Below, one piece after another: positions 7,392 through 36,945 of a stretch of 64,000 nt of DNA. The notes under the pieces are model-generated. The model was given only the letters and a program-made list of their open reading frames with translations, did no database searches and was not told the DNA's origin. Made by a program: the position numbers and the translations under genes. The DNA is from Dehalococcoidia bacterium UBA5760 (GTDB lineage Bacteria; Chloroflexota; Dehalococcoidia; Dehalococcoidales; UBA5760): the NCBI GenBank assembly GCA_002418895.1, contig DIFA01000017.1, positions 668-64,667 on the forward strand, written 5' to 3'. How positions within the stretch are numbered: the stretch's first letter is position 1; every line of letters starts with the position of its first letter.

Positions 7392-7405
7392 GTAAGGAAT
7401 TCGTG

Positions 7406-7519
7406 ATGAAAGTTAGATCTTCGGTTAAAGTTAGATGTGAGAAGTGCAAGGTGATTAAGCGGCGGGGGGTGGTCAGGGTCATTTGTACCAACCCCCGGCA
7501 TAAGCAGAGGCAGGGCTGA
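7406..7519 (+). CDS. rpmJ: 50S ribosomal protein L36
   Basis: Hand-translated, too short for the ORF track: [37 protein letters not shown], stop TGA at 7517-7519. Confidence 0.9.
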
Positions 7520-7548
7520 TTTACCTGTCGGATTAAGGAGGGGTCTTA

Positions 7549-7938: not shown

Positions 7939-7969
7939 CCGGTTATTAGATATCAAGTAGGAGGTAAGA

Positions 7970-8362: not shown

Positions 8363-8372
8363 AGGGTAAAAA

Positions 8373-16413: not shown

Positions 16414-16425
16414 TTTTTCTCCTTT

Positions 16426-20468: not shown

Positions 20469-21695
20469 ATGCAACGAGTAGTTATTACCGGGATGGGAGT
20501 GGTTTGCCCGATAGGATTGAGTATTGATAGTTACTGGACAAGTCTGGTGGAGGGGAAATCGGGGGTGGACTTTATCAGTCACTTCGATGCCAGCAACTAT
20601 CCGGTAAAATTGGCTGCCGAGGTAAAAGGATTCAACCCGGCAGACCATCTCGATTCCAAGATGGTGCAGCGCACGCCGAGGTGTGTTCACCTGGTTGTGC
20701 CGGCGCTTAGAGAGGCTGTGGCTCAAGCCGGATTGGATATGGCTGATGAGCAGCCGGAGCGTGTCGGTGTTATCGGTGCCAATATGCTGGAATATCAGTA
20801 CGTTGGCGAGGACTGGGAGAGGCTTAAGCAACGGGGGCCTAGGAGGGTTGATCCCCTGCTGTTTACCAAGGCAGGACCCAGTACGGTATCCCTCCAGGTG
20901 GGAATGCTGCTGGGGGCGAAAGGGCCCAACAGCACTGTGAATAGCCTTTGCGCCAGCGGCACCGATGTCATAGCCACTGCTCGTAACTTCATCCAGTTCG
21001 GCTATGCCGATGTGATGATCGCGGCGGCATCCGATGCTTCACTTAGTGAATTGGGTATCGCTTCTATCAGCTTGCTGGGGGCGCTGACTAAAGAACCGGA
21101 TCCGGATAAGGCCAGCCGGCCCTTTGACCTTAACCGCAACGGTTTTGTTTATGGGGAGGGGGCCGGAGTATTAGTCTTAGAAAGCCTGGAGCATGCCCGG
21201 AAGCGGGGGGTGCCGGTTCTGGCTGAGGTAGCCGGCGCCGGCTGGTCGTTTGATGCTTATGACGCCACTGCTCCCCAGCCGGAAACAGAGGCTGTCGCTA
21301 TGCGAAGTGCCCTTAAAAATGGTGGGGTAAGGCCGGAAGAGGTGGACTATATTAATGCCCATGGTACCAGCACCAAGCTGAATGACCGCAGTGAGACCGA
21401 AGCTATCAAGATGGTATTTGGTGAGCGGGCTTACCGGATACCGGTAAGCTCTTTCAAGTCTATGTTTGGCCATATGGTAACCGCCGCCGGTGCTGTTGAG
21501 GCTATTGGTGCGGTACTGGCCATCAATAATGCTACCATCCCGCCGACTATCCATTATGAGACCCCTGATCCGGAGTGTGACCTGGACTACGTGCCCAATG
21601 TGGCTCGTAAAGCCCGGATAGATGTCTGCTTGAAGAGCAGCTTCGGGCTCGGCGGTCAGAATTGCTGCCTGGTTCTCAAGAGATTTACGGAATAG
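20469..21695 (+). CDS. beta-ketoacyl-ACP synthase, KAS I/II (FabF-like) with intact Cys-His-His triad
   Basis: 408 aa. Active-site Cys in NSLCASGTD, His in NAHGTSTKLND and KSMFGHMVTAAG. Confidence 0.85.
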   Translation: MQRVVITGMGVVCPIGLSIDSYWTSLVEGKSGVDFISHFDASNYPVKLAAEVKGFNPADHLDSKMVQRTPRCVHLVVPALREAVAQAGLDMADEQPERVGVIGANMLEYQYVGEDWERLKQRGPRRVDPLLFTKAGPSTVSLQVGMLLGAKGPNSTVNSLCASGTDVIATARNFIQFGYADVMIAAASDASLSELGIASISLLGALTKEPDPDKASRPFDLNRNGFVYGEGAGVLVLESLEHARKRGVPVLAEVAGAGWSFDAYDATAPQPETEAVAMRSALKNGGVRPEEVDYINAHGTSTKLNDRSETEAIKMVFGERAYRIPVSSFKSMFGHMVTAAGAVEAIGAVLAINNATIPPTIHYETPDPECDLDYVPNVARKARIDVCLKSSFGLGGQNCCLVLKRFTE

Positions 21696-21744: not shown

Positions 21745-22614
21745 ATGGAGAAGGTAGTTATCAGTAGTGATTCGGGTACTATACTTCCGGAAGCGGCCAA
21801 AAATTACGGGTTTACCATGATCCCCGTCCCTATCATCATTGATGGTGAGACCTATCTGGACACAGAAATAAACATGGATGACCTCTATGCTCGCCTGGAT
21901 GGGAAGGAAAACCTGCCCAAGACTTCAACTGCTAATGTTGCCGAGTTTGCCCAGTTTTTTATCGACTTGGCCCGCAATACCGAGGCTATCCTGCATATCA
22001 GCATGTCATCGGTGTTTAGCGGCCATCACAACGCTGCTTTGCAGGGTAGGGAATTAGCCATTGAAAAGTTGTCCAATACCAGGATTGAGATAGTCGATTC
22101 GCTTACCATGGGGACTGGTGTTGCTCTGATTGCTATTCAGGCAGCCAGGGCGGCGGCGCAGGGTAAAAGTATGGATGACGTTATGAAACTGGTTGCCAGT
22201 ATCATCCCGCAGATGAAACTCTTTCTGGCTCGCGATACCCTGTTCTATCAGGCGGAGGGTGGCAGGATATTTGAAGCCAAGACCTGGGCCGAGGCCGAGC
22301 AGGCCACCAGCTTCAGGTCGATAACCGAGGTAGACTCGTCTACCGGTGGAGCGTTAAGGCCGGTTGCCAGGGCCAAGACGGTAGCCCAGATAATGGAGAA
22401 GCTCGTTGAGATAACTAGGGAGAAAGGTCAGGGTAGCAAACTGGTTGGTGTTATCGGTCATACTCGAGCACTGGAGCGTGCCGAGAAGCTAAGGGAAATG
22501 CTCCGCGCCGATCTCGATTTCGACTGGCTGGAGATTGCTGAGGAGTCGGCAAGCGCTGCCATACATACCGGTAAAGGGCTCATTGGTTACGGTTTTTGTA
22601 GCAAGCTTGATTAG
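21745..22614 (+). CDS. DegV family fatty-acid-binding protein (FakB-like)
   Basis: 289 aa. The N-terminus VVISSDSGTILPEAAKNYGFTMIPVPIIIDGETYLD is typical of DegV. Confidence 0.8.
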   Translation: MEKVVISSDSGTILPEAAKNYGFTMIPVPIIIDGETYLDTEINMDDLYARLDGKENLPKTSTANVAEFAQFFIDLARNTEAILHISMSSVFSGHHNAALQGRELAIEKLSNTRIEIVDSLTMGTGVALIAIQAARAAAQGKSMDDVMKLVASIIPQMKLFLARDTLFYQAEGGRIFEAKTWAEAEQATSFRSITEVDSSTGGALRPVARAKTVAQIMEKLVEITREKGQGSKLVGVIGHTRALERAEKLREMLRADLDFDWLEIAEESASAAIHTGKGLIGYGFCSKLD

Positions 22615-22684: not shown

Positions 22685-24550
22685 ATGCTCCCGCAGAGAA
22701 TTGCCTATCTGGATTTAGATATGAGGAAGGTCGAGGTTAAAGAGGTCCCCGAAGAAATCACCAGGAGGTTTCTCGGCGGCCGCGGAATTAATATCTATCT
22801 GCTCTATCACAGCGTTGGCCCCGAAACTCACCCGCTGTCTCCCCAGAACCCCCTTATTATCGGACCGGGGATGGTAACCGGACTGAAAGGGATAAGCGCT
22901 TCGAGGTGTAATATTTCGGGAAAGTCCCCCGAATCAGGATTGCTGGGCGATTCCAATATCGGTGGGTATTTCGGAGCTTTTATGAAGAGGACGGGTATCG
23001 ACTTCCTTTTTATCACTGGATCCTCCTCGAAACCGGTCTATATCTACCTGGATAAGGAAAGGATTAGCATTGAAGACGCTCGGGATCTGTGGGGAAAATC
23101 AACCACGGAAACCGATATGATTTTGTCAGAACGCTATGGCCCGGCTTGCCAATCCATCTCGATCGGGGTAGCTGGAGAAAACCTGGTGCGTTTTGCCTGC
23201 ATCATCAACCGGAAGAAGAATACTGCCGGCAGGACGGGCATGGGTTGTCTGATGGGGTCTAAGAAGATAAAGGCAATCGTGGTAAACGGTAAAGAGCCGG
23301 TAGAGCCGGAGGATGAGGCTGGATTTGATAGGTTAATGAGAGGGTTTCAGCAGGGGTTAAAAAAAGAGCCTCTGGTCAAATTGCTGGGGGAGTATGGTTC
23401 GTCTCTGCTCTATATCCTGGTCAACCGGCGAATCGGCATGGGCCGGTCGTATAACGGGCTCTCGACAAAATTCCCCGGAGGCGAGAATATTTCGCCCAAC
23501 ATACTGAAAGATAAATACTACACCGGGAAGGCCGGTTGCTATTCCTGTCCGGTCTCCTGTCACCACAAGTACCGGGTCGGTGAAATAGAGAGCGAAGGCC
23601 CGGAGTATTCTATTCTGGCCAGCTTCGGCCCGGTGGTGGGCATAAAGCGGTTGGAGGCGGTTCTTTATATCAATGACCTGATAAATCGCTATGGCCTGGA
23701 TTCCAGTTCTACGGCTAATCTCATCGCCTGGACAATCGAACTACTTAAGAGGGGCCTTATCGATCAAAGTGTGACCGATGGCCTCAGTCTTGACTGGGGA
23801 AACGAGGAAGCTATCATCGAGCTGATTCACCGGATTGCCCACCGAAAAGGTCTGGGTAACATTCTCGCTGACGGGGCCAGGGAGGCGGTAAGGTATTTCG
23901 GTGAAGAAACGGGCCGGTATCTTCTCTGGTCGAAGAATCTACCGCAGACCGACCCTGCTGATTTGAGGTATTTCCCTGCCTACGCCCTGGGCGATGCTAC
24001 CGCTTCGAGGGGGCCGGATCATTTAAGGAGCCGGCCTACCTGGGAGTCCTATCGACTTTCTGAAGAAACCCTGAGGGGTATCTACGGCGGTGATATTTCC
24101 GCCAATCCCCGCAGCTACCTGGGAAAGGGTAGGGTAATCTGGTGGTGGGAGACATACCTTTCCCTGTTCGATGCCCTGGGAATCTGTAAACTGATCGCTT
24201 TTCATTGCCAGCCCGGTCTTATTGATTTTGCCTTCTTCTCGGAACTGGTTCGCTGTGCCACGGGTATTGATTTGACGGCGGAGGAAATCTTTGCCGTCGG
24301 AGAGAGGATTGTCAACCTGGAGAGGATGTTCCTGGTCAGGGAGGGAATAAAGAGGAAGGATGACTTTCCTCCCCAGAGGTATTTTGAGCCTTTGGCCTGG
24401 CAGGACGGACTGAAGCCCGAAGAGAAGGACTTGAAGCTGGACAGGGCGGCTTTTGAGGGGATGCTCGATGAATATTACCGGCTCCGCGGTTGGGATAGCG
24501 AAGGCGTGCCGCTGTCTGGAACCAAAGAGCGTTTGGGTTTAGCACGATGA
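22685..24550 (+). CDS. aldehyde:ferredoxin oxidoreductase family protein (tungsto-/molybdopterin, 4Fe-4S), paralog 1
   Basis: 621 aa. The N-terminal AOR domain has RFLGGRGIN. The cluster ligands are CYSCPVSC (CxxCxxxC) plus a distal Cys in DALGICKL. Confidence 0.85.
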   Translation: MLPQRIAYLDLDMRKVEVKEVPEEITRRFLGGRGINIYLLYHSVGPETHPLSPQNPLIIGPGMVTGLKGISASRCNISGKSPESGLLGDSNIGGYFGAFMKRTGIDFLFITGSSSKPVYIYLDKERISIEDARDLWGKSTTETDMILSERYGPACQSISIGVAGENLVRFACIINRKKNTAGRTGMGCLMGSKKIKAIVVNGKEPVEPEDEAGFDRLMRGFQQGLKKEPLVKLLGEYGSSLLYILVNRRIGMGRSYNGLSTKFPGGENISPNILKDKYYTGKAGCYSCPVSCHHKYRVGEIESEGPEYSILASFGPVVGIKRLEAVLYINDLINRYGLDSSSTANLIAWTIELLKRGLIDQSVTDGLSLDWGNEEAIIELIHRIAHRKGLGNILADGAREAVRYFGEETGRYLLWSKNLPQTDPADLRYFPAYALGDATASRGPDHLRSRPTWESYRLSEETLRGIYGGDISANPRSYLGKGRVIWWWETYLSLFDALGICKLIAFHCQPGLIDFAFFSELVRCATGIDLTAEEIFAVGERIVNLERMFLVREGIKRKDDFPPQRYFEPLAWQDGLKPEEKDLKLDRAAFEGMLDEYYRLRGWDSEGVPLSGTKERLGLAR

Positions 24551-25542
24551 AGATAGCTGTTATTGGTGCCGGGGCGATCGGTGCGTTAGTAGCTGGTTAT
24601 CTCAGCAGGGAGGGGGTTGATGTTACTTTGGTCGGCAGGGCGAGTGATGTCCCTGTTATTAAGGACGACGGTCTTGCCATCGACGGAGTAAGAGGAAACA
24701 CAGTCGTTCCGGTGAAGGTGACCGATAAGCTCGAAAAGGGCTTTGGTCTGGTTATTCTGACGGTTAAAACGCAGGATATTAATTCGACTCTGAGCGGGAA
24801 TGTCAAGGCCCTGGGGAATGCTCCTCTCCTTACCGTGCAGAACGGCGTGAGGGCGGAGGAAATTATTCGGGGACTTATTCCCAAGGAGAATATCGTCAGC
24901 AGTATCGTTATGTTCGGGTCAACCTACCTTGAGGCGGGCAGGATTCTGCATAACTTTGAGGGGGACTGGGTAATCGGCAGGGCGTTTGCACCGAATAACG
25001 GGATTATTGACAGTATAGGTGACCTGCTGGCTGGTGCCTTCTCCGTCCGCATCACGGACAGGATAACAGGAATGAAGTGGCTGAAACTCTTCTTGAATTT
25101 GAATAATTGCCTGCCTGCCCTAACCGGGAGGAGTATGCAGGAAACGTTTTCCCATCCCGATATCTCCTGTTTGAGCATCCGTCTTCTGAGCGAGGCACTG
25201 TCGGCGGTAGACCGGGCGGGAATAGAGCTGGAGTCACTGCCGGACTTCCCTGTGGCAAGACTGCGGGCACTCACTACTATGCCGCTGGCGGAGGCGGGAG
25301 AGGTATTTTCTAAAACGATGACCAATCTGAGCCGGGAGCCGCTCTTCGGCTCTATCTTACAGAGCATCAAGAGGGGAAAACCGTCCGAGATTGATTATTT
25401 CAACGGAGAGATAGTGTATCTGGGGGAGAAGATAGGAGAGGATGTGACGCTGAATAAGAAGATGGTCGAGATGGTACACACGGTAGAGGAGAGCGGCAGG
25501 TTTCTCAGTCCGGGAGATATTCTAAATGAAATCGGGGGATAA
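24547..25542 (+). CDS. 2-dehydropantoate 2-reductase family (ApbA/PanE-like) NAD(P)H oxidoreductase
   Basis: 331 aa. Rossmann N-terminus MKIAVIGAGAIGALVAGYL. The start overlaps the AOR stop (ATGA). Confidence 0.7.
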   Translation: MKIAVIGAGAIGALVAGYLSREGVDVTLVGRASDVPVIKDDGLAIDGVRGNTVVPVKVTDKLEKGFGLVILTVKTQDINSTLSGNVKALGNAPLLTVQNGVRAEEIIRGLIPKENIVSSIVMFGSTYLEAGRILHNFEGDWVIGRAFAPNNGIIDSIGDLLAGAFSVRITDRITGMKWLKLFLNLNNCLPALTGRSMQETFSHPDISCLSIRLLSEALSAVDRAGIELESLPDFPVARLRALTTMPLAEAGEVFSKTMTNLSREPLFGSILQSIKRGKPSEIDYFNGEIVYLGEKIGEDVTLNKKMVEMVHTVEESGRFLSPGDILNEIGG

Positions 25543-25544
25543 GA

Positions 25545-26177
25545 ATGGCAGAAGATAGACCCAAATCAGCCGGGACATCTAAAGTCTCGGGAAAGACCAG
25601 GAAGAACTTTCACGATGTTCCTCTCTTGGTTACGGTGAGTAAGGTCAAGGAGGAGTGCTATCGGGGCTACAAGGAGGGTGATGCCTTTGTCTTCGAAGAC
25701 TTCACCAAGACGCCCCGTGGTTTTTGCCAGGGTGCCGCCGCCGTACTTTTTCCTTGCCTTTATGCCCTGACCTTCGGCGCGGAGTTTCAATTTGAAGGTA
25801 ATCCCCGCTCTATTCACACCACCTGTCCCGATGGTGGTAAGGTCGAGTTCTTCACCCAGGTGCTTACTCAATCTGGGGAAGTGGAAAAGGGTGAGAAGAA
25901 AGAGCATCACGGGCCGAGTCCCAAAAAGATGATTATCAGCGTGGAAGAGGTCAACGGGCACTGTGCCTACGATTACAAACCGGGGGACACTATTGAGGTA
26001 ACCGGACTCAGGACCCCCCAGGGTTTTTGTGGGGCTGCCTATAACGCCCTCTTCCCCGTCCTTTTCGCCCTTAATATGGGGGCTAAATTTTCCTTCTCAG
26101 AGGATCAGAATGCTAACCTGCGCGTGACCTGCCCCGATGGGGGAATAATCAGGTTTAAGGTAAGGAGGATCCAGTGA
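25545..26177 (+). CDS. Cys-rich protein made of two tandem copies of a ~85-aa domain ending in CPDGG (resembles TIGR04076-type small proteins)
   Basis: 210 aa. Repeat 1 is C..GY.EGD....GFCQGA...TCPDGGKVEF; repeat 2 is C..DY.PGD....GFCGAA...TCPDGGIIRF. The family assignment is from memory and was not searched. Confidence 0.55.
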   Translation: MAEDRPKSAGTSKVSGKTRKNFHDVPLLVTVSKVKEECYRGYKEGDAFVFEDFTKTPRGFCQGAAAVLFPCLYALTFGAEFQFEGNPRSIHTTCPDGGKVEFFTQVLTQSGEVEKGEKKEHHGPSPKKMIISVEEVNGHCAYDYKPGDTIEVTGLRTPQGFCGAAYNALFPVLFALNMGAKFSFSEDQNANLRVTCPDGGIIRFKVRRIQ

Positions 26178-27439
26178 TTAAGAGACGTGTGGTGGTTACC
26201 GGTCTGGGGGTTATTTCTCCTAACGGCATTGGTAAAGAGGCTTTCTGGAAAAATACGGTCACCGGCAAGTCGGGGGTAAGGCGGGTTACCGATTATGATG
26301 TCTCGCAATTCCGCTCTCAGATAGCCGCTCAGGTGGTTGACTTCGATCCCTTTGCCTTTGGCCTCAGTGGGGAGGAGGTGGAGAGGATGGACCGCTATGT
26401 ACAGTTTGCCGTGGCCGGGGCGGAGGCCGCTGTAGCTGATGCCAGGTTTGTTTTCGGTGATGAGATAAGAGAACGGACGGGGATCTGTCTCGCTAATGCT
26501 ATCTGCGGCACAAGATATATGGACGAAGAGTTCTTGAGGGTGACCAACGGCGGCAAAGACCCTATCGATCCCAAAAAGGTAAGGCCGCATCTTTATGATG
26601 CCTCCATGTTCAATACCCCTTCCAGTGAAATAGCGGCACGCTATCAATTAAAGAGTATTTGCGCCACCGTATCTACCGGTTGTACCGCCGGTACCGATGC
26701 CGTGGGTTTTGCCTATGAAGTTATCCAGGATGGGTTGGCCGATGTCATGATTACCGGTGCCGCTGAGGCGCCTCTCTGTCCGATAACCTTTGCTTCTTTT
26801 GATGTCTTGAATGTAATCTCAGCGAGAAACGGTGAGCCGGAAAAGGCTTCCCGGCCCTTCGATAAGGAGAGGGATGGGTTTGTCCTCTCTGAAGGGTGCG
26901 GCATTCTGGTTCTGGAGGAGCTGGGCCACGCCCTGAGCCGCGGCGCTCGTATCTACTGTGAAATCAAGGGTTTCGGCACCTGCTGCAATGCTTACCATAT
27001 GACCGACTTGCCTGCCGATGGTGATAGTATGGTCCCTTCTATCAAGCTTGCCTTAAATGATGCCGGGCTGCTCCCGGAGAAGATCGGGTATATCAATGCC
27101 CACGGGAGCTCCACCAGGCAGAATGACGTGTTCGAGACGAATGCCTATAAGAAGGTCTTTGGCAGCAGGGCTTACCAGATTCCGATAAGCTCTCTCAAGT
27201 CTATGATCGGTCATCCCCTGGCGGCCGCCAACAGCGTCGAGCTTGTTGCCGGTGCCCTTACCTTTGAGACCGATATCCTGCCGCCAACGATAAATCAGGA
27301 AGTTTCCGACCCGGATTGCGACCTGGACTATGTTGCCAACAAGGCTCGTGAAAAAAAGGTTGATTACATCTTGAAGACCAGCAGCGGTTTTTCCGGTGTC
27401 CATTCCTCAATGATACTGGGAAGGTGGAACTCTAATTGA
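26174..27439 (+). CDS. type II PKS ketosynthase alpha (KS-alpha)
   Basis: 421 aa, GTG start overlapping the upstream stop (GTGA). TVSTGCTAGTDAVG (Cys170), NAHGSSTRQND, SLKSMIGHPLAAAN. Confidence 0.85.
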   Translation: MIKRRVVVTGLGVISPNGIGKEAFWKNTVTGKSGVRRVTDYDVSQFRSQIAAQVVDFDPFAFGLSGEEVERMDRYVQFAVAGAEAAVADARFVFGDEIRERTGICLANAICGTRYMDEEFLRVTNGGKDPIDPKKVRPHLYDASMFNTPSSEIAARYQLKSICATVSTGCTAGTDAVGFAYEVIQDGLADVMITGAAEAPLCPITFASFDVLNVISARNGEPEKASRPFDKERDGFVLSEGCGILVLEELGHALSRGARIYCEIKGFGTCCNAYHMTDLPADGDSMVPSIKLALNDAGLLPEKIGYINAHGSSTRQNDVFETNAYKKVFGSRAYQIPISSLKSMIGHPLAAANSVELVAGALTFETDILPPTINQEVSDPDCDLDYVANKAREKKVDYILKTSSGFSGVHSSMILGRWNSN

Positions 27440-28647
27440 AAAAAGTGGCTGTTACCGGGTTAGGTATAGTAGCCCCTCCCGGAGTGGGCAAGGAAGAATT
27501 CTGGCAGAACATAAGGGAGGGGAAGTCATTCATTTCCCCTATTACCAGATTCGATGCTTCAGCCTATCCTTCACGGGTGGCCGGGCAGGTTAAAGAACTG
27601 GACACAGGTCACCTTTCTCCCCGTCTCTTGAAGAAGATGGACCGGTTCTCGGTGATGGCTCTGGTAGCTACCGGGCAGGCCCTGAAAGACGCCGGTATAG
27701 ATTTGGCTAAAGAAGACCCTTACAGCGTAGGCGTCTTCCTGGGCAATACACTGGGCGGGTGGCTTTATGCGGAGACAGAGCTGCGTGACCTCTACCAGGA
27801 AGGCAGGAATGGGGTAAGCCCTTATAACGCCAGCGCCTGGTTTGCCGCGGCTCCCCAGGGCCAAATCTCTATTTGTTACGGCGTCAAGGGGTATAGTAAG
27901 ACGGTAGTCGCCGACAGGGCCGGAGCTTTGATGGCTATTGGCTGTGCGGTAAGGGAAATCAGAAACAATAAAGCGGCCATTGCTCTGGCTGGAGGCACCG
28001 AAGCACCGGTTACTCCCTACGCATTGCTCTGCTGCACCACGGAGGGCTCTCTTTCCGGGGGTACTTATCGACCATTCGATAAGGAAAGGGATGGTTTTGT
28101 TATCGGTGAAGGGGCGGCGATCATAACCCTGGAGGATATGGATTCCGCTCGAAGCAGGGGGGCGACTGTCTACGGGTCGATTACTGGCTTCGGAACTTCC
28201 TGTGATGGCACTCACCGTATCACGCCGGATCAGGATGGTAGAGGGTTGACCAGGGCGATAAAGACTGCCCTGGACGGTGCCGGTTATCAGCCCGGTGATA
28301 TTGATTATATTTGTGCCGATGGAGCGGCAACCGAACTGGGGGATGTCAGCGAAACAAGAGCAATCAAGGCGGTATTCGGCAGTTATGCGGCGGAAATACC
28401 GGTCAGCGCCCCGAAGTCCATGTTCGGACACCTGCTGGGGGCATCCGGTGCCATTGACCTGGTCGGCACTCTGCTGACTATGCAGGAGGGGGTTATTCTG
28501 CCCACGATAAATTACCGGACGGAGGACCCGGAGTGCAATCTGGACTATGTGCCGAATAAATGTAGGTCTAAAGAGGTTAATCGTGCCATTGTCATCTCGC
28601 GCGGTCGCGGAGGCATAAATGCCGTTTTGGCTGTAGAAAGGAGTTAG
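27436..28647 (+). CDS. type II PKS ketosynthase beta / chain-length factor (non-canonical: Arg at the Cys/Gln position)
   Basis: 403 aa. The TTG start overlaps the KS-alpha stop. TVVADRAGALMAIG aligns residue-for-residue with KS-alpha TVSTGCTAGTDAVG. The first His is lost (CADGAATELGD) and the second is retained (KSMFGHLLGASG). Confidence 0.8.
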   Translation: MKKVAVTGLGIVAPPGVGKEEFWQNIREGKSFISPITRFDASAYPSRVAGQVKELDTGHLSPRLLKKMDRFSVMALVATGQALKDAGIDLAKEDPYSVGVFLGNTLGGWLYAETELRDLYQEGRNGVSPYNASAWFAAAPQGQISICYGVKGYSKTVVADRAGALMAIGCAVREIRNNKAAIALAGGTEAPVTPYALLCCTTEGSLSGGTYRPFDKERDGFVIGEGAAIITLEDMDSARSRGATVYGSITGFGTSCDGTHRITPDQDGRGLTRAIKTALDGAGYQPGDIDYICADGAATELGDVSETRAIKAVFGSYAAEIPVSAPKSMFGHLLGASGAIDLVGTLLTMQEGVILPTINYRTEDPECNLDYVPNKCRSKEVNRAIVISRGRGGINAVLAVERS

Positions 28648-28652
28648 CGGTT

Positions 28653-28889
28653 ATGGCGAATATCGAAGAAAGGGTGCAGGATTTTTTCGCCAAGTTCCTT
28701 GACCTGAGTCCTGCCGAGATTACTCCGCAGGTTAACCTGAGGGATGATCTTCAGATGGACTCAACGGAAATGGTGGAGCTGGTGGTGGCTTTAGAAAAAG
28801 AGTTCAATATCCATCTCAAGGATGGTGAGATTACCAACAGGAATTGCTTCGGCGACGTGTTAAAGACCGTTGGAGAGAAGCTGGGATAA
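28653..28889 (+). CDS. acyl carrier protein
   Basis: 78 aa. The phosphopantetheine Ser lies in DDLQMDSTEMVELVVALEKEF. Confidence 0.85.
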   Translation: MANIEERVQDFFAKFLDLSPAEITPQVNLRDDLQMDSTEMVELVVALEKEFNIHLKDGEITNRNCFGDVLKTVGEKLG

Positions 28890-29692
28890 TGAGAATTATT
28901 GACCTGAGTCTCCCCATCGATGACGGTGTTTTTGAGCCCCACCCGGTAAAGATAAAGAGGTGGGGACATCGGGATGGCGGAGACCGTTTCGGCCGGATTT
29001 GGGCGAAGTCTCACGGGATAAGAGGAATTCTGGGCTATATTACGGGACGGGAGCGGATTACGCGTAATTCCTTCAGGGACGGTGCCTTCCTGTCCCTGGA
29101 GTGGGTCAGGGCGGCGGTCCATAGCGGCACTCACCTTGATGCGCCCTATCATTTCGGGCCTATTTCGGAAGGAAAAGAGGCCAAGAAGATAGAGGATATA
29201 CCCGTTGAGTGGTGCTATGGGAACGGTGTCGTCCTGGACTGTTCTCAAAAAGAGCCCGGAGGGCTTATTGTCAGGGAGGATGTAGAGCGAGCGCTCGACA
29301 GCATTCGGCATGAGATAAAGCCCATGGATATCGTCCTTATCCGTACCGGCGGCGATAAGTTATGGGGAACTCGGAAATACTACTCCCATTTTGTCGGGGT
29401 GAGCCGGGAGGCGCTTGCCTATATTCTGGACTTCAAGGTAAAGGTGGTCGGGATTGATACCTTTAGCTTTGACCGTCCGCTCAGCAGGATGGTGACTGAT
29501 TTTCTAAAGACGAAGGATAATGCTCACCTCTGGCCGGCCCACTTCTACGGTAGGGAAAAGGAGTACTGTCACATCGAGAGGCTGGCCAACCTGGATAAGA
29601 TTCCCTCGTATGGTTTCCGGCTGGCCTGTTTCCCGATAAAGATAAAAGGGGTAGGTGCCGCTGCGGTAAGAGCGGTTGCCATTATTGAATAA
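28889..29692 (+). CDS. metal-dependent 'putative cyclase' family protein (kynurenine-formamidase-like fold)
   Basis: The track ORF starts at 28844, but MRIIDLSLPI at the ATG at 28889 overlaps the ACP stop (TAATG). Signature HSGTHLDAPYHF. Confidence 0.75.
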   Translation: MRIIDLSLPIDDGVFEPHPVKIKRWGHRDGGDRFGRIWAKSHGIRGILGYITGRERITRNSFRDGAFLSLEWVRAAVHSGTHLDAPYHFGPISEGKEAKKIEDIPVEWCYGNGVVLDCSQKEPGGLIVREDVERALDSIRHEIKPMDIVLIRTGGDKLWGTRKYYSHFVGVSREALAYILDFKVKVVGIDTFSFDRPLSRMVTDFLKTKDNAHLWPAHFYGREKEYCHIERLANLDKIPSYGFRLACFPIKIKGVGAAAVRAVAIIE

Positions 29693-29706: not shown

Positions 29707-30153
29707 ATGGGACATACGGTAAACTCTATTCTGATCGAGGCGCCTTACGATCGGGTCTTCGATATCTCCAACGATATCGGGCGGTGGACGGAGTTGTTCG
29801 GCGGTGAGTACAAAGAGGCCAGGGTGCTGAAACGGGAGGGGAACAAAATCACCTTCCAGTTGACCGATAATGAAGGTAATTCCTGGCAGTCCTTCCGTCT
29901 CCTCTTTAAGGATTATTACTTTACCTATGCCCAGAAGATGGAGCCGGCATTTCCCTTCAAGTATATGAAGATTATCTGGCTCTATACCCCTACCCCGGCA
30001 GGAGTAAAGCTGACCTGGGTGCAGGATTTTACCATGGCGGACGGAGCCAAGTTTAACGACGAACAGGTTGAAGGCTTCATCAACAAGCATTCCCGGGATA
30101 ATCTGCAGATATTCAAGAGTGTGATAGAGAAAGAAGCAGGGAGTAAGAGATGA
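29707..30153 (+). CDS. SRPBCC-fold polyketide aromatase/cyclase (monodomain ARO/CYC, TcmN/ZhuI-like)
   Basis: 148 aa. HTVNSILIEAPYDRVFDISNDIGRWTELF... has the typical Polyketide_cyc2 N-terminus and size. Confidence 0.7.
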   Translation: MGHTVNSILIEAPYDRVFDISNDIGRWTELFGGEYKEARVLKREGNKITFQLTDNEGNSWQSFRLLFKDYYFTYAQKMEPAFPFKYMKIIWLYTPTPAGVKLTWVQDFTMADGAKFNDEQVEGFINKHSRDNLQIFKSVIEKEAGSKR

Positions 30154-30923
30154 GCGAACTGAAGGGTAAGACGGCTATCGTTACTGGGGCAAGTCGGGGT
30201 ATCGGCGGAGCGCTGGGGATGGCGCTGGCAAAAGAGGGGATGGACCTGGTGCTTGCCGCACGCGGCCGGGCGGTGCTCGAAGAGACCGCCGCGGGGCTGT
30301 CCCGTAAATATAATGTGCGGGTAGTTCCGGTAGCCTGTGATGTTACCCGGCAGGGCGACCTGGAGAATCTGGCCGCTACTGCTATCAAGGAGTTCAATAA
30401 GATAGATGCCCTGATCAACAGCGCCGGGGTAAGCAGCCAGTACCCCTTTCAGGAGCAGCCGCTCGAAGACATCGCCAGGCTGATGTATACCAATTACTTC
30501 GGGGCGGTGATGCTGACCCGCCTCATGATCAACCACTTTATCGAAAACAAGAGCGGCGCCGTTATCAATATTACCTCCGGCTCAACCCTGGTAGACCCGC
30601 CGCCGAGAAACTTTATCGTTTATTCCTCTCTGAAGCGGGCGCTGAATGCTTTTAGCAAGGGGCTTTTCTGGGAGTTGAGGGACCAGGGTATCAAGGTAAC
30701 CTCGATTATGCCCGGGGTTACCGATACCGCCCTGACCGGAGGGCTTGCCGAGATTTCAGTGGACCGTTCGCGTCTGATGCAGACCGGGGTGATAGAGGAT
30801 GCCGTCAAGTTCGCTCTCTCCGTACCGGCCAATGTCTGTCCTCTGGAGATTTCGGTTATCAACCAGCGCACCCCCTGGACGAGTCCGGTAATTCCATACC
30901 GACAGGACCATCCCAAAGAATGA
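30150..30923 (+). CDS. SDR-family ketoreductase
   Basis: 257 aa. TGASRGIGGALG, NSAG, and the catalytic YSSLK. The start overlaps the upstream stop (ATGA). Confidence 0.85.
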   Translation: MSELKGKTAIVTGASRGIGGALGMALAKEGMDLVLAARGRAVLEETAAGLSRKYNVRVVPVACDVTRQGDLENLAATAIKEFNKIDALINSAGVSSQYPFQEQPLEDIARLMYTNYFGAVMLTRLMINHFIENKSGAVINITSGSTLVDPPPRNFIVYSSLKRALNAFSKGLFWELRDQGIKVTSIMPGVTDTALTGGLAEISVDRSRLMQTGVIEDAVKFALSVPANVCPLEISVINQRTPWTSPVIPYRQDHPKE

Positions 30924-31840
30924 TGTTTGATGCGCATATTCACTGGCTGCCCGGGGAGATTATCGAAAATGCCCACTTTTACTCTGCCGCCTGGGGTAGT
31001 ATCGAGGGTCAGCTTGAGGTCATGGACAAATTTCACATCGATAAGACCCTCATCGTTTATCCGACCAATGATGCCTACCGGAAGATGGGGGGACTCGGAG
31101 AGGTTGCCCGGCTCTACAATGACCGCATAGCCGGGGTGGTGGGAAGATACCCGGAGCGGTTCGTCGGAGCGGCTATCCTGCCGGTCGATGAGCCGGAAGA
31201 GATGGCCAGAGAGTTCGAGCGGGTAACCAAGGGCCTGGGGTTCAGGGCCCTTTCCCTGGCGACCAGCTTTGACGGCATATACCTGGATGATGAGCGGTTT
31301 TGCCATCTCTATGAGGAGGCGGAGTCGCTTAATATCCCCATCTTTGTTCATCCCCAGACGATAAATCCGATAGGCTACGAGCGGATAAAGGACCCCCTGC
31401 TTACTCCTGTCATCGAGTTCGTCTTCGATACCACCATCTGCATCGGCAAGCTGATTATGGCGGGTACGCTCAGGCGGTTCCCCAACCTCAAATTTATCTT
31501 TGCTCATTTCGGGGGCGTCACCCCCTTTATCAAGGAAAGGTTCGACAGCATATACCGGATGCTCAGAGGCAGAGATATCGTTAAGGACCTCTTTGCCCTG
31601 CCCGGCGAGTATCTGAGGCGGATATATGTGGATACCAGCGGCGTTACCTCCAGTCATGCTCTCATGTGTACCCTGGAGATGGTGGGTGCGGAGCATATTC
31701 TGTGGGGCAGCGACTACCCGGGTAACCCCGACATACCGGCCTCGATCAACGCCATCGAGAAACTCGATATTCCTGCCCGTGAAAAGGCGAAGATACTGGG
31801 GGCAAACATGGAGCGGGTGCTGTCCGGGGCAATCACCTGA
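30920..31840 (+). CDS. amidohydrolase_2 (ACMSD/LigW-type) family metal-dependent hydrolase/decarboxylase
   Basis: 306 aa. N-terminal DAHIH metal motif, later VHPQ, FAHFGG and WGSDYP. Overlaps the KR stop. Confidence 0.7.
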   Translation: MMFDAHIHWLPGEIIENAHFYSAAWGSIEGQLEVMDKFHIDKTLIVYPTNDAYRKMGGLGEVARLYNDRIAGVVGRYPERFVGAAILPVDEPEEMAREFERVTKGLGFRALSLATSFDGIYLDDERFCHLYEEAESLNIPIFVHPQTINPIGYERIKDPLLTPVIEFVFDTTICIGKLIMAGTLRRFPNLKFIFAHFGGVTPFIKERFDSIYRMLRGRDIVKDLFALPGEYLRRIYVDTSGVTSSHALMCTLEMVGAEHILWGSDYPGNPDIPASINAIEKLDIPAREKAKILGANMERVLSGAIT

Positions 31841-31858: not shown

Positions 31859-32731
31859 CTAGCTGTCCTTACGCAGGTATTTATCTACCAGCAGCTTGAG
31901 TTTTTCCTTCTGTTCGGGCGGTATCGAGGCGGGATCGGTGACAATCGCTGTCTTCAGGGCGGTGGTGCAGTCGCAGTGGCGTTCGTGCGGTATCCTGGCG
32001 GCGGTTACTCTGATGATTTCCCTGATCTTGTCGTTGTTCTGCTTCAGTGTCTCTATGATGATATCAATCGGGGTCGGCTTATCGTGTTTCTGCCAGCAGT
32101 CGTAGTCGGTGATGCTGACGATAGCGGCGTAGCATATTTCGGCTTCCCGGGCCAGCTTGGCTTCGGGTGAGGCGGTCATACCGATGACATCGCTCCCCCA
32201 GGAGCGGTAGAGGTTTGATTCGGCTCTGGTGGAGAAAGCTGGGCCCTCCATCGCCAGATAGGTCCCGCCCCGGTGGATGGCAGCTCCGGCCTCCTTTGCT
32301 GTCCGGTAAAGAAGCTGGCTCAGTACCGGGCAGAATGGCTCGGCAAAGATGATGTGGGCAACGATGCCGCCGCTGAAGAAGGAGCTTGCCCGGTTGCGGG
32401 TGCGGTCGATAAGCTGGTCGGGGATGACCAGCTCGCCGGGTTTGAACTCCTGATTGAGGCTGCCGGCGGCGTTCACCGAGATTATCCACTCCACTCCCAG
32501 AGACTTCAGGGCGTAGATATTGGCCCGGTAGGGTACCTCGCCGGGGGAGAGGTGGTGCCCCTTGCCGTGACGGGGCAGGAAGGCAACCGCAGTCCCTTCC
32601 AGATGCCCGGTGGTGATGGTGTCACTCGGCCTGCCGAAAGGCGTCTCAATATCAACCTCTGCGATATCAGTCAGCCCTTTGATATGATAGAGCCCGCTGC
32701 CTCCGATTACTCCGATTTTCGCCTCCGGCAT
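31859..32731 (-). CDS. mtnP: S-methyl-5'-thioadenosine phosphorylase
   Basis: 290 aa. The N-terminus KIGVIGGSGLY and an overall PNP/MTAP pattern. The ATG shares one base with the stop of the upstream RM gene. Confidence 0.9.
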   Translation of the reverse strand: MPEAKIGVIGGSGLYHIKGLTDIAEVDIETPFGRPSDTITTGHLEGTAVAFLPRHGKGHHLSPGEVPYRANIYALKSLGVEWIISVNAAGSLNQEFKPGELVIPDQLIDRTRNRASSFFSGGIVAHIIFAEPFCPVLSQLLYRTAKEAGAAIHRGGTYLAMEGPAFSTRAESNLYRSWGSDVIGMTASPEAKLAREAEICYAAIVSITDYDCWQKHDKPTPIDIIIETLKQNNDKIREIIRVTAARIPHERHCDCTTALKTAIVTDPASIPPEQKEKLKLLVDKYLRKDS

Positions 32732-35691
32732 CAGGTTTCTCCTTCCACTATTTTTCTCTCCTCTTCGCTAAGTCCGTAGAGGTCATAGACCAGGTTATCT
32801 ATTTCCTCATCCGTCCGCTTGATTTCTCTCACCAGCTCATCCTTCTCATTGCCGTCCGTATTACGTACTGGCGCCAACCGTCTGTTCAGCTCCAGCATCC
32901 TGTCTGCCAGCGTCACTAAACCATCGTGCATCTTTTTCTCGGCGGGGTTGTCAAAGTCGATGAGGCGGATGGGGAGCTTTTCGATATAACGACGGGCGTA
33001 GGAAAAGAAGCCTCCTCGAAAGGGGCTGCTGATCTTTCGAAGATTAAAGTCGAGCAGAGTAGAATTTAAGAGGCTAAGAACGTACAGGTAATCTTCTCTG
33101 CTAGCTGATTTTAGGGTAAGGCCATATCCGCCTGCATTACCTCCACCCATAAAGTAGTAAACGCCGTCGTTATCGAAGGTGATGCTGCTTTTGCTGGCCA
33201 GCACTTGTATCATAATCTTACATCTATCATGAAGAGCCAGGTTTTGAGTGCGGCCGAAGGCATACCATCTCTCGTGACGCATCTTGCCTTGCTCCCTGCT
33301 TTCCAGGGCCTTTCGGTTCTGCAGCAGGTATTGCCAGCAGTGGGGATGGAGCGAGGCGAACTCCCCGGCTGGTATTAGTTCGGCTTTCTCCGCGCTTATT
33401 TTATAGGGAAAGAGCAGCAGCTGTTTGGGAACGGGGAATCCGTAGCGCTCGATATCCTTGCCCATTAGTAGCGGTTTGAGCAGGGCTGACTCCAGCTCGA
33501 CTGCCTGTCCCAGGCTGCGGGAATAGACCCTGATCTTGCCGCTAACCGGTTCATCTTGCTTCTCCAGAATGTAGATTTTGTCAGCACTTGTAACAAGCCC
33601 CTGGAAAATCCTATCGGCTAACTCTCCCAGTGGTTTTGTATTGCCGGCAATCCTGGTGAGCAGGGTGTCACCCGTCGCTGGCGGAGGCCAGATACCCCGG
33701 ACTACGGCCTCTTGATTCGTTGCGCTGCATGGAAGTCCGGCAGCGTCTATCGGCCGGTCTGCTCTGGAGAGGTCGATATCCTCAGGAATGAAGGTGTAGC
33801 GAAACGGCTGCTCCCCGGTGCCTTTCTTTAATGTGATAATAACGGGATAGGTCGTTGCTTCGGCGAATACCTGCTGGGTCGAGAGGTCTACGATACTCTC
33901 CACGGCACATTCGCTGCGCAGTATCTGCTTGATTTTCTTGCCGTAATCCGACTTGAGGAACTTGCCTGAGGTGATGAAGCCGAGCCGACCCCCCGGTTTT
34001 AGCAGTTTGATTGCCTGCTCCAGGAACAGGACGTATATATCAAAGGAGCCGCAAGCGGAGCGGTAGATTTCACGGTAGTAATCGGCTTCATCTCTGGGCA
34101 GGGTCTGTATCCTGACATAAGGCGGGTTGCCGATCACGATGTCGAAGCCGCCGTTATCCATAATCTCCTTGAACTCCCGCTGCCAGTTAAACGGCTTTTT
34201 ATCGCGCCAGCCGTCGCCGAAGTATTTTTTGAGTTCTTCCTCGGTGCCTGAGATGAGGGAGTTGCCCGGGCGGATGTTGTCGGTAAGGCCGGGGAGCAGC
34301 TCCCTTTTCGCCAGACTGCGCAGCAGCAGATTGAGGCGGGCGATTTCGACTGCCTGCATATCCAGGTCGACGCCGAAGATATTGCTGGTAAGGACGGGCA
34401 GGCGTTCCCACTGGTCGAGCTCGGATACCGGTTTGCCCCGCTGGCAGGCGTGGTATTGCAGTAGCTCGTCATAGGCACGGATGAGAAATGAACCCGAGCC
34501 GCAGGCCGGGTCCAGTATTTTAATGTTGTGTATTTCACTGTAGCTACGCTCCTCGATAAAACGCCCCACGGTCTCCCTGACGATGTAGTCGGTGACGAAT
34601 TTCGGCGTGTAGTAGATGCCGTGCTCTTTGCGGCGCTGTTTTTTGGCGGTAAGCTCGAAGGCTGCTTCGGTTGGAATTCCTAGGCCCGTTCGGGCTTGAG
34701 CTTCCTTTGCTCTCTGTTTGGCTGCCGTGGCGACGTGCCCCAGGTATTGCTCGTAGACTGCGCCCAGCACATCGGCATCGATGAGGGAGAAGTCGTAGCT
34801 GGCTATACCGCCCGGGATTTCGTATAGACCGTTGAGAATGCTCTCGATGGTGGTGCTCTCGATAAAGACCCCGTCGGTGAGATGGTGCCGGAAGAGGTCG
34901 CTATCGTAGAAGCCGTCAAAGTAGCGGAAGATAGCGCGCAGCGACTCAACGAGCTCTCCCCGGTGCTCGCTGCGGCTCCATTGGTGTACGGCGGCGAGCA
35001 GGGTCTTGTTCTCTATTCCCCTGTCCTCGCAGGTGCGGATAAAGATAAGGCGGTTGAAGAGCCGTTGAATCACCTCATCTATCTCTTCGTGGCTCAGATT
35101 CCGGTTATAGTGGTGGAGCTGGCTGTATAGTTCCTCGCGCCATTGGCGGAGCTGCTTGAACAGGCGCTGCTCTATACCCAGTCGCGGCGGGAGCGCCCCG
35201 TATTTTTCCGCCTTTTCATTGAGGGCATTTCCCTGGAATGATTCCCTGGATAGCAGCCACAGGTCGTCGAAGTTCTTGAGATAGTTGTCGTAAGAGAGGC
35301 TTATGAAAGGACGTCCGGTCTGGGCGTTGTAGACCTGCAGTCCCTCGAAGTCGGAAAGCGCTGCCCAGGTTATGCCCTTGTTGTAGGCGTAGGTAACGGC
35401 CTGCTTGATATATTCGGGCTTGGTCAAGTCAGCCCTTAGTGCCTTGGCTTCCAGATAGAACCGGGAGACACCCTGCAGCCGGAAAACGTAGTCCACCCGC
35501 CCGCTGCCTGCCTTGACTTCTTCGGCTACCTCATCCCGGCTGTAAATATCCCAGCCCAGAGCAAGAAAGAGGGGCATAATAAAGATGCGGCGCGTATCAG
35601 CTTCGGAGAACTTCCTGATATCCCTCGCCTCAAGGCTTTGATATTTGGCAACCAGCCTGGCTACTTCCTGGCAGGCCTCTTCCTTTGTCAT
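32731..35691 (-). CDS. single-polypeptide type IIG restriction endonuclease / N6-adenine DNA methyltransferase (Eco57I/MmeI-like architecture)
   Basis: 986 aa. The N-terminal HsdR_N-like PD-(D/E)xK module has ADTRR...GRVDYVF...YLEAKA. MTase motif I is ILDPACGSGSFL and motif IV is VIGNPPYV. A long C-terminal TaqI_C-like specificity region follows. Confidence 0.8.
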   Translation of the reverse strand: MTKEEACQEVARLVAKYQSLEARDIRKFSEADTRRIFIMPLFLALGWDIYSRDEVAEEVKAGSGRVDYVFRLQGVSRFYLEAKALRADLTKPEYIKQAVTYAYNKGITWAALSDFEGLQVYNAQTGRPFISLSYDNYLKNFDDLWLLSRESFQGNALNEKAEKYGALPPRLGIEQRLFKQLRQWREELYSQLHHYNRNLSHEEIDEVIQRLFNRLIFIRTCEDRGIENKTLLAAVHQWSRSEHRGELVESLRAIFRYFDGFYDSDLFRHHLTDGVFIESTTIESILNGLYEIPGGIASYDFSLIDADVLGAVYEQYLGHVATAAKQRAKEAQARTGLGIPTEAAFELTAKKQRRKEHGIYYTPKFVTDYIVRETVGRFIEERSYSEIHNIKILDPACGSGSFLIRAYDELLQYHACQRGKPVSELDQWERLPVLTSNIFGVDLDMQAVEIARLNLLLRSLAKRELLPGLTDNIRPGNSLISGTEEELKKYFGDGWRDKKPFNWQREFKEIMDNGGFDIVIGNPPYVRIQTLPRDEADYYREIYRSACGSFDIYVLFLEQAIKLLKPGGRLGFITSGKFLKSDYGKKIKQILRSECAVESIVDLSTQQVFAEATTYPVIITLKKGTGEQPFRYTFIPEDIDLSRADRPIDAAGLPCSATNQEAVVRGIWPPPATGDTLLTRIAGNTKPLGELADRIFQGLVTSADKIYILEKQDEPVSGKIRVYSRSLGQAVELESALLKPLLMGKDIERYGFPVPKQLLLFPYKISAEKAELIPAGEFASLHPHCWQYLLQNRKALESREQGKMRHERWYAFGRTQNLALHDRCKIMIQVLASKSSITFDNDGVYYFMGGGNAGGYGLTLKSASREDYLYVLSLLNSTLLDFNLRKISSPFRGGFFSYARRYIEKLPIRLIDFDNPAEKKMHDGLVTLADRMLELNRRLAPVRNTDGNEKDELVREIKRTDEEIDNLVYDLYGLSEEERKIVEGET

Positions 35692-35863: not shown

Positions 35864-36904
35864 TCAAGCGGTTATTCCCCTCAGCCTCTCGATATAGGGC
35901 TCTTTGATGACGCCCTTCTCCGTTATGATGGCGGTTATGTAGTAGTGGGGGGTGACGTCGAAGGCGGGGTTGGCCGCCGTGGTGCCCTCCGGCGCGGTGC
36001 CTACTCCCTGTAGGTGGGTTACCTCGTCGGGGTCTCTCTCCTCGATGGGGATTTCGTCCCCGCAGGTCAGGGAAAGGTCGATGGTGCTTACCGGAGCGGC
36101 GACGTAGAAGGGGACGCCGTTTTCCATCGCCAGCACGGCCAGGCTGTAGCTGCCGATCTTGTTGGCGGTATCCCCGTTGGCGGCAATGCGGTCGGCGCCG
36201 ATGATGACGCAGTCGATCTTCCCCCGGTTGAGAAAGTAGCCTGCCATGGAGTCGGTGATCAGGGTTAAGGGGATGCCGGTCTGCTTCAGTTCCCAGGTGG
36301 TGAGGCGTGCCCCCTGTAGCAGGGGACGGGTCTCGTCGGCGAGTACCTTGATCTTCTTGCCCTGTTCTTTCGCCTGTCTGATTATGCCGAGGGCGGTGCC
36401 ATAGCCGGTGGTTGCCAGGGGGCCGGTATTACAGTGGGTCAGTATGTTAGCGCCGTCCTTGATTAATCCGGCGCCGAAGCGGGCCAGTTTTTCGGTGGCC
36501 TCAATCTCTCCCCAGTGTATTCTGATTGCTTCGTTAACCAGCGCTTTTTTCATCTGAGCCGTATCCCCGCCGGCTTCGGCTGCCTGTTGCATTCGTTCGA
36601 TAGCCATAAAGAGGTTCCTTGCCGTGGGTCTGGTGGCGGCCAGGGTTTGGGTAATGTCCTTGAGTTCGAACAGGAATGCGTCTCTGGACGTATCCTCTAT
36701 CTGCAGAGCGCCCAGGGCTATTCCGTAGGCTCCGGCCACTCCGATTGCCGGCGCTCCCCTGATTCTCATCTCCTTAATCGCTGCGGCGACCTCTCGATAA
36801 TCACCAAGCTCAAGGTAGACCTCTTCCCGGGGGAGCCTGGTCTGGTCAAGTAGTTTTATTTTGTTCCCCAGCCATTCTATCGGCTGGTAGCCTGTTTCTT
36901 TCAT
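35864..36904 (-). CDS. mtnA: S-methyl-5-thioribose-1-phosphate isomerase
   Basis: The track ORF extends to 37039, but MKETGYQPIEWLGNKIKLLDQTRLP (ATG at 36904) is the typical MtnA/eIF-2B-like N-terminus. GADRIAANGDTANKIG is also present. Confidence 0.88.
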   Translation of the reverse strand: MKETGYQPIEWLGNKIKLLDQTRLPREEVYLELGDYREVAAAIKEMRIRGAPAIGVAGAYGIALGALQIEDTSRDAFLFELKDITQTLAATRPTARNLFMAIERMQQAAEAGGDTAQMKKALVNEAIRIHWGEIEATEKLARFGAGLIKDGANILTHCNTGPLATTGYGTALGIIRQAKEQGKKIKVLADETRPLLQGARLTTWELKQTGIPLTLITDSMAGYFLNRGKIDCVIIGADRIAANGDTANKIGSYSLAVLAMENGVPFYVAAPVSTIDLSLTCGDEIPIEERDPDEVTHLQGVGTAPEGTTAANPAFDVTPHYYITAIITEKGVIKEPYIERLRGITA

Positions 36905-36945
36905 TCTGGCCTTCTCGTGAACTTCCTTTGCCGGAGTAAGTTTTC

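Follow-up and report, generated by a model that had tools for sequence, protein, structure and literature searches.

A 64,000-nucleotide stretch of the genome of Dehalococcoidia bacterium UBA5760 (assembly GCA_002418895.1, contig DIFA01000017.1, positions 668 to 64,667), hereafter the window, carries an operon encoding a polyketide synthase (PKS) of type II, in which the gene KS-beta is predicted to encode a chain-length factor (CLF), the partner of the ketosynthase (KS) encoded by KS-alpha. Residue 161 of KS-beta is arginine. A preliminary description of the DNA had pointed to the glutamine of canonical CLFs at this position and had read its absence as a sign that the synthase probably does not prime itself and may draw on a non-acetate starter. 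Our analysis favors another reading, to which we assign a probability of about 0.7: Arg161 is a normal structural residue of a genuine non-actinobacterial CLF, initiation and elongation take place on KS-alpha, and priming follows the ordinary malonyl-derived acetate route. Arg161 would pair with Asp295, filling and stabilizing a dead pocket, and would have no role in catalysis or starter choice. A purely structural role of the CLF, which the preliminary description had held as a fallback, fits the evidence best and is supported by both covariation and conservation.

KS-beta and its residue 161

KS-beta (27436–28647; coordinates are positions in the window, and the genes of the operon all lie on the plus strand) encodes 403 amino acids (aa) with the domains PF00109 and PF02801. 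It follows directly on KS-alpha (26174–27439; 421 aa), in which domain match, alignment and tree agree on an intact ketosynthase with Cys170, His310, His347 and Lys342. The two genes are coupled, as the TTG start of KS-beta overlaps the TGA stop of KS-alpha in the sequence TTGA, and a Shine-Dalgarno sequence (GGAAGGTGG) lies about 9 nucleotides (nt) 5' of this start. Arg161 is encoded by AGG at 27916–27918 and forms, together with Asp160 (GAY-AGG, 27913–27918), a 'D-R/K' motif that the sequence and the alignment of homologues place at the former Cys position. The first catalytic His is replaced by Asp295 (28318–28320, within 'CADGAAT'), a change that KS-beta has in common with canonical CLFs ('FADGAAT'), and the segment from the retained Lys327 to His332, the former second catalytic His, is encoded at 28414–28431. 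With R/D/H at the three triad positions, KS-beta does not have the Cys-His-His of a housekeeping FabF (KAS II). It lacks both the catalytic Cys and the first His, as expected of a CLF, stands next to a Cys-His-His KS-alpha, and is followed downstream by genes for an acyl carrier protein (ACP), a PF04199 cyclase, an SRPBCC protein and a ketoreductase (KR). On the strength of sequence and context, KS-beta is a genuine CLF, the non-catalytic subunit that would join the intact KS-alpha in the elongating ketosynthase of a probably aromatic type II PKS.

The AlphaFold2 model of the KS-beta monomer is consistent with this assignment (pLDDT 90.2, pTM 0.92), and Foldseek places the model in the KAS II (thiolase) fold with a TM of 0.92 to both FabF and 1tqy_A. 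In the monomer model, Arg161 sits at a strand-turn-helix elbow (E154–158, H160–176), the nucleophile site of ketosynthases. The interface and gate loops (101–140) have low pLDDT in the same model. The gate residues are W/A/L in KS-beta, W/G/L in the clostridial CLF discussed below and F109/T112/F116 in the actinorhodin (act) CLF; a chain-length prediction from this pattern was dropped as indecisive.

The register on which the comparison depends is secure. As the preliminary description had stated, Arg161 stands opposite KS-alpha Cys170: a 44-residue stretch of KS-beta (YGVKGYSKTVVADRAGALMAIG...GGTEAP) aligns to KS-alpha (YQLKSICATVSTGCTAGTDAVG...GAAEAP) without gaps and with 13 of 44 residues identical. 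KS-alpha and KS-beta are clear paralogues (tblastn E ~1e-75), so the match reflects homology and not chance. Full-length PDB searches with KS-beta rank FabF above CLFs, and the alignment with CLFs was made from a 67-residue segment around Arg161 and from a Streptomyces CLF query. Searched with HMMER against all PDB chains, the segment has the act CLF (1tqy_B) as its top match, with AEQAGG lying gapless over ADRAGA of KS-beta, followed by AntE (6smo_C), in which an Asp is opposite Arg161, again gapless. MAFFT likewise places Gln161 of the act CLF (literature numbering) in the column of Arg161. The shift of register that might have brought another residue into this column was not found, and the absence of the canonical Gln from KS-beta stands confirmed. 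As a side observation, PDB entry 9s5h holds two different '3-oxoacyl-(ACP) synthase' chains (B and C), which match KS-beta at 257 and 211 bits.

How general the Gln is among CLFs was assessed with six PGAP-annotated CLFs and their KS partners from Streptomyces and Pseudonocardia plasmids. In tblastn searches of plasmid records, such 'ketosynthase chain-length factor' genes match KS-beta at 38–43% identity, about the same as its identity to FabF. The column of residue 161 holds Gln in five of the six, in the pattern [D/E]-Q-AGG, and His in one, a Pseudonocardia CLF (plasmid pBCI1-2, locus L085, 1453–2670; codon CAC). The first-His site reads 'FAD[GA]A' in all six, and the second-His site 'TGR'. 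KS-beta differs at two of these sites, with Arg161 opposite the Gln161 of the act CLF and His332 where Arg is found in 7/7 Gln/His-type CLFs and in the act CLF. The statement that canonical CLFs have Gln therefore holds for the actinobacterial proteins, namely five of the six annotated ones and the act CLF, but not for clostridial and Archangium CLFs, which have Arg, or for AntE, which has Asp. In the literature on type II PKSs and CLFs that could be consulted, we found no published statement that CLFs carry Arg.

Among close relatives, the residue is strongly conserved. All 120 closest homologues of KS-beta (60–94% identity), whose named members are Dehalococcoidales and Omnitrophota metagenome-assembled genomes (MAGs), have Asp-Arg or Asp-Lys at positions 160–161. 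With KS-beta itself included, the 121 sequences divide into 86 with Arg and 35 with Lys at position 161, and Asp160 is invariant. Arg161 thus swaps only with Lys, which is encoded by AAG or AAA. The Arg codons (AGG, CGC, CGT, CGG) belong to both Arg codon families, indicating that the residue has been retained through codon turnover. We regard Arg161, from these alignments, as a family trait and not an oddity. A representative-protein search was dominated by multidomain type I PKSs, and only its few single-domain rows were useful; several of the single-domain representatives, at 40–47% identity, have D-R or D-K. In the wider sample of 248 distinct CLF-clade sequences analyzed below, 202 have Arg or Lys at position 161.

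In species-representative genomes, close relatives (58–94% identity) occur in MAGs labelled Dehalococcoidales, Syntrophaceae, Omnitrophota and Planctomycetales. Beyond them, identity falls sharply to 43–46%, and the 14 proteins sampled there comprise 13 ordinary FabF and one KS-alpha-like protein from an Elusimicrobiota MAG. Within Dehalococcoidales, 10 of 201 genomes and 4 of 106 genera have the gene, and the PKS operon is an accessory cluster in this order.

The difference of all three catalytic residues from FabF could also be what remains of a decaying FabF paralogue without a role, in which Arg161 would be random. However, the frame of KS-beta is intact and translationally coupled to KS-alpha, its relatives at 58–94% identity lie in a conserved operon in MAGs assigned to four phyla, the D-[R/K] motif is invariant, and the structure model is confident. 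We consider decay to be refuted by this conservation and give it practically no credence.

Covariation in the pocket and the history of the residue

Positions 161, 295 and 332 of KS-beta correspond to Cys, His and His in active ketosynthases, a triad with side chains that come together in the pocket. Tabulated over the 248 CLF-clade sequences, these positions fall into a small number of combinations. Most sequences (201) combine R/K at 161 with D/E at 295 and N/H/Y at 332, and 31 have A/S/Q/H at 161, D at 295 and R at 332. A further 15 have S/C/T/I, N/A and N at the respective positions, and a single sequence has R, A and N. Not one of the 248 carries basic residues at both 161 and 332, and all that are acidic at 295 have a basic partner. 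In other words, wherever the first-His position holds an acid, one and only one of position 161 and the second-His position is basic. KS-beta, with D160/R161/D295/H332, shows the Arg-type combination of D-[R/K], an acid and a non-basic residue that is found in 201 of the 248. Position 332 is His in the Dehalococcoidales versions, Asn in all Omnitrophota versions examined and Arg in Gln-type and Ala-type CLFs. Lys327 is invariant (248/248).

Taken together with the known geometry of the triad, this covariation leads us to infer that Asp295 forms a buried ion pair with a basic residue, for which Arg-type CLFs would use position 161 and Ala- and Gln-type CLFs position 332. The three-site pattern offers a simple and testable account of the pocket differences between CLF lineages. 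It further suggests that the debated role of the Gln as a decarboxylase cannot be general to CLFs.

A different set of residues is seen in one CLF-clade group, P0301–P0339, from Nitrospirota MAGs and others, where Ser fills the 161 column and both former His positions are Asn (DSNKN). In one member, P0307, the 161 column holds Cys (DCNKN).

The strict selection on a basic residue, with only Arg or Lys in 202 sequences, could also reflect a function of its own. Arg161, together with the retained Lys327, might bind a carboxylate in the KS-beta pocket, be it that of malonyl-ACP, of an acidic starter or of the terminal acid of the growing chain, and KS-beta would then belong to a mechanistically distinct class of CLFs. 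The invariance of Lys327 and, in the close family, of the adjacent Asp160 would fit such a role. Both features are, however, equally kept in Gln-type CLFs (Asp or Glu at 160) and are not specific to the Arg type. In addition, the first His is lost, and the drift of the second-His position between His, Asn and Tyr in Arg-type CLFs argues against catalysis in the KS-beta pocket. The base can also sit at position 332, with Ala, Ser or Gln at 161, which fits charge compensation for Asp295 better than carboxylate binding. The pocket in solved CLFs is not known to be within reach of the ACP arm. Overall, we judge carboxylate binding by Arg161 to be unlikely.

To place the Arg-type proteins among other CLFs, we built a maximum-likelihood tree of 61 sequences under LG+C20. 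All KS-beta/CLF proteins, including the act CLF and the six annotated actinobacterial CLFs, form one clade (100/100) apart from KS-alpha and FabF. The base of this clade is an unresolved five-way split, in which four of the five branches have Arg or Lys and the fifth, P0179, has Ile. The basal Arg/Lys branches include the KS-beta family of the window (99/70), P0184 with the Archangium CLF, and the Clostridium beijerinckii CLF with P0248 and the metagenome locus L091. The six actinobacterial CLFs are nested inside the clade as sister to P0241 (100/99), an Ala-type protein that counts among its relatives Ktedonobacteraceae proteins named 'minimal PKS chain-length factor' by JGI. The KS-alpha part of the tree mirrors the CLF part: actinobacterial KS-alpha (100/100) has as its sister a group (99/95) in which KS-alpha of the window stands with those of C. 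beijerinckii, Archangium and L091.

Rooted between the CLFs and KS-alpha/FabF, the tree is most simply read with Arg/Lys as ancestral and Gln as derived. Arg161 is the normal residue of deep non-actinobacterial CLF lineages and probably also the ancestral state, and Gln would be a later change in a lineage in which Arg occupies the former second-His position instead. A fuller scenario, which we put forward tentatively and at somewhat less than even odds, is that Arg/Lys, and not Gln, is ancestral in a CLF pocket held together after its loss of function by the ion pair between the Asp at the first-His position and a basic residue. This basic residue would first have stood at the Cys position; its shift to the second-His position would have come in the lineage that gave rise to Ktedonobacteraceae-type and actinobacterial CLFs, and only then would position 161 have changed to Ala or Ser, and subsequently to Gln. 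If this is true, the 'chain-initiation' Gln is a late, lineage-specific addition, and the Dehalococcoidales operon is a living pre-Gln synthase that works without oxygen and whose product might be a redox-active aromatic compound.

Starter unit and priming

Under the structural reading of Arg161, the chain would be initiated and elongated on KS-alpha by Cys170, His310, His347 and Lys342. Malonyl-ACP would be made with the housekeeping FabD, which is present in the genome, and the primer would be acetate derived from malonyl in the ordinary way. According to a 2025 review, decarboxylative priming takes place at the active-site Cys of the KS in the KS/CLF pair (PMC12664062). Ordinary priming on KS-alpha is the most economical reading of the operon, and acetate priming as such would follow from it. 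An aromatic product built from malonyl units is likewise suggested by analogy with the relatives described in PMC7693217 and PMC5982219: ClrB, the CLF of the clostrubin PKS, is placed in the C20 clade (PMC7693217), and the pyxidicyclines are built from nine malonyl-CoA (PMC5982219).

The preliminary description had argued instead that loss of the Gln probably stops the KS/CLF pair from making an acetate primer, and that a fatty acyl or aldehyde-derived unit may be supplied through neighboring genes, for which the aldehyde:ferredoxin oxidoreductase (AFOR), the PanE-like reductase, the ketosynthase KS3 and a DegV protein come into consideration. The Gln is indeed absent, and an enzyme that converts aldehydes heads the operon in several loci, as AFOR in the window, L003 and L004 and as an aldehyde dehydrogenase in the Omnitrophota locus L008. 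A PanE-like gene, moreover, stands before KS-alpha in all related loci whose sequence extends upstream of KS-alpha (L002–L009 and L011), and FabH was not detected in the genome search. Yet Arg/Lys is fixed in 120/120 close homologues and present in 202/248 sequences, and it is equally fixed in Omnitrophota loci without AFOR. As the residue occurs in loci with and without AFOR, it does not track the neighboring genes, and the proposal that these supply the starter finds no support in it. The adjacency of KS3 and DegV to the operon is not kept in L003 or L004. Neither the window operon nor any of the related loci examined yielded a KAS III, acyltransferase or CoA/ACP ligase for starter loading. 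We therefore consider a non-acetate starter, as deduced from the loss of Gln, quite improbable.

A further point is whether characterized acetate-primed synthases have CLFs with Arg at this position, which holds in part. Clostridial (ADRASG) and Archangium (CDRASG) CLFs carry the Arg, and their characterized relatives are described as all-malonyl (PMC7693217, PMC5982219); ClrB and PcyF themselves are represented in this comparison by a presumed and a homologous protein, respectively. AntE has Asp and so does not share the Arg. It also lacks the Gln, yet its product AQ-256 is described as built from eight malonyl-CoA (PMC12538586). Since Arg/Lys is normal in non-actinobacterial CLF branches, Arg161 does not point to an unusual starter unit. 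For annotation, this means that Arg or Lys at the 'Gln' column of a CLF is no sign of an unusual starter or of a broken enzyme, but marks non-actinobacterial, anaerobe-rich branches of type II PKSs.

Several points weigh against the reading of Arg161 as a structural residue of an acetate-primed synthase. The contact between Arg161 and Asp295 is taken from the known geometry of the Cys-His-His triad and not from coordinates. The covariation stems from perhaps four to five clades, with few independent changes, and one sequence combines Arg161 with Ala at 295. The identification of the clostridial protein P0168 as ClrB relies on species names and locus content and not on an accession match, and the pyxidicycline-type comparison uses a homologue from Archangium violaceum in place of PcyF. 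FabH was not found in the genome, although the MAG is 64% complete and its absence says little. Finally, the head of the operon repeatedly carries an aldehyde-handling enzyme (AFOR, or the aldehyde dehydrogenase of one Omnitrophota locus), for which this reading does not account. Aldehyde chemistry may be part of the pathway, though it does not track residue 161.

The operon and its relation to known type II synthases

The operon starts with the gene for the AFOR family protein (22685–24550), followed by the PanE/ApbA-like reductase (24547–25542) and a duplicated, Cys-rich protein of the TIGR04076 family (25545–26177), all assigned by domain match. Downstream of KS-beta, a 78-aa ACP (28653–28889; PF00550, 37.9 bits; motif LQMDSTE) lies in the 196-nt gap before the cyclase gene and had been missed by an open reading frame (ORF) list limited to 80 aa. 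The 'putative cyclase' of the PF04199 family (OxyN/DpsY-type) occupies 28889–29692; its probable start is ATG 28889, in overlap with the ACP stop (TAATG), rather than the listed TTG 28844. It is followed by a predicted single-domain SRPBCC (TcmN-like) aromatase/cyclase (29707–30153), a short-chain dehydrogenase/reductase (SDR) with the domain match of a ketoreductase (30150–30923) and an Amidohydrolase_2 protein (30920–31840; ACMSD/LigW-like), which is a candidate decarboxylase.

The order PanE, TIGR04076, KS-alpha, KS-beta, ACP, cyclase, SRPBCC, SDR and amidohydrolase is the same in MAGs that bear the labels Dehalococcoidales, Syntrophaceae, Omnitrophota and Planctomycetales. AFOR is found only in the Dehalococcoidales and Syntrophaceae versions and is absent from Omnitrophota versions with the same Arg. 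In the Omnitrophota locus L008 (1534–3099, 3499–4977), the aldehyde dehydrogenase takes the place of AFOR and is joined by a B12-binding radical SAM enzyme, and the Omnitrophota-type loci L006 and L007 carry a major facilitator superfamily (MFS) exporter. Further genes of this aldehyde dehydrogenase/B12-radical SAM/MFS set lie at 7366–8916 and 9539–10645 in L006 and at 10498–11646 in L007. The TIGR04076 Cys-rich domain accompanies Arg-type KS/CLF pairs: in the window it is duplicated within one protein just 5' of KS-alpha, and in the clostridial locus L088 (9260–9787, 13656–13946) it is fused to the N-terminus of an ACP and present as a second, free copy.

Genes around the operon were also inspected. 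KS3 and a DegV/FakB-like protein (20469–21695 and 21745–22614) lie next to a divergent PlsY. KS3 is a ketosynthase with its Cys-His-His intact and shares 68% identity with the housekeeping FabF of the genome (C6:3284–4513). That FabF belongs to a fatty acid synthase cluster on contig C6 (PlsX-ACP-SDR-FabF-FabG), and a third FabF-like gene lies on C22. Upstream, the minus-strand genes at 15199–17691 encode MetK and AdoHcy hydrolase (AhcY); this pair of 404-aa and 421-aa ORFs had been considered as a second KS pair, a possibility that was rejected on their identity as MetK and AhcY. MtnP (methylthioadenosine phosphorylase) and MtnA (methylthioribose-1-phosphate isomerase) are convergent to the 3' end of the operon, with a 986-aa restriction-modification gene between them (31859–32731, 32731–35691 and 35864–37039, minus strand).

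Among characterized systems, the type II PKS of the clostrubin producers C. beijerinckii and Clostridium puniceum (PMC5686105) offers a close point of reference. The CLF sequence P0168 (locus L088; motif ADRASG) is held by both species and is presumably ClrB, judging from species names and locus content. The genes of L088 are ordered KS, KS-beta, a TIGR04076-ACP fusion, PF04199 cyclase and SRPBCC, with Amidohydro_2 and an ACP farther downstream, and identities with the window (tblastn) are 47% for KS-alpha, 43% for KS-beta, 47% for the cyclase, 38% for SRPBCC and 33% for the amidohydrolase. Both loci contain a PF04199 cyclase, a single-domain SRPBCC protein, Amidohydro_2 and a TIGR04076 domain. 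The two CLFs agree in having Arg at the Cys/Gln column, an Asp-type first-His position and a second-His position that holds His. Their hosts are both strict anaerobes, and no oxygenase gene occurs in the stretch examined of either locus. In contrast to the window, the clostridial locus has a different gene order with the ACP fused to the TIGR04076 domain, contains two phosphopantetheinyl transferases (PPTases), CMD, DUF362, DUF169 and hydrolases, and is without a PanE-like reductase, AFOR or SDR next to the PKS. Its CLF is also nearer the actinobacterial branch in the tree than the KS-beta family of the window is. By sequence comparison, the window operon and the clostridial type II PKS cluster are distantly related.

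Other systems share less with the window. The act KS/CLF (ActI-ORF1/ORF2, PDB 1TQY) and the actinobacterial CLFs belong to the same CLF clade as KS-beta and have in common with it a D/E before the key residue, the His-to-Asp change ('ADGAAT') and the retained Lys. The act CLF, at about 40% identity, differs in having Gln161 in place of Arg161 and Arg at the second-His position ('TGR'), where the KS-beta family has His or Asn. AntD/AntE of the Photorhabdus anthraquinone AQ-256 PKS (PDB 6SMO/6SMP) likewise form a non-actinobacterial minimal PKS, accompanied by KR, SRPBCC and PF04199-type cyclases, with a CLF that lacks Gln (PMC6638757); unlike KS-beta, AntE has Asp at the column, is shorter (371 aa) and is more divergent. 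The Archangium violaceum CLF P0264 (locus L090; CDRASG) is about 42% identical to KS-beta, and the order of its locus (hydrolase-cyclase-diTcmN-KR-KS-CLF-ACP-PPTase) matches that of pcyA-H (PMC5982219). This locus differs from the window in its didomain TcmN cyclase, its amidotransferase and oxidoreductase tailoring genes and its aerobic host. Seen against these systems, KS-beta is a Dehalococcoidales addition to the already known non-actinobacterial Arg-type CLFs, and Dehalococcoidales join, in patchy distribution (10/201 genomes), the anaerobic hosts of clostrubin-like aromatic PKS clusters.

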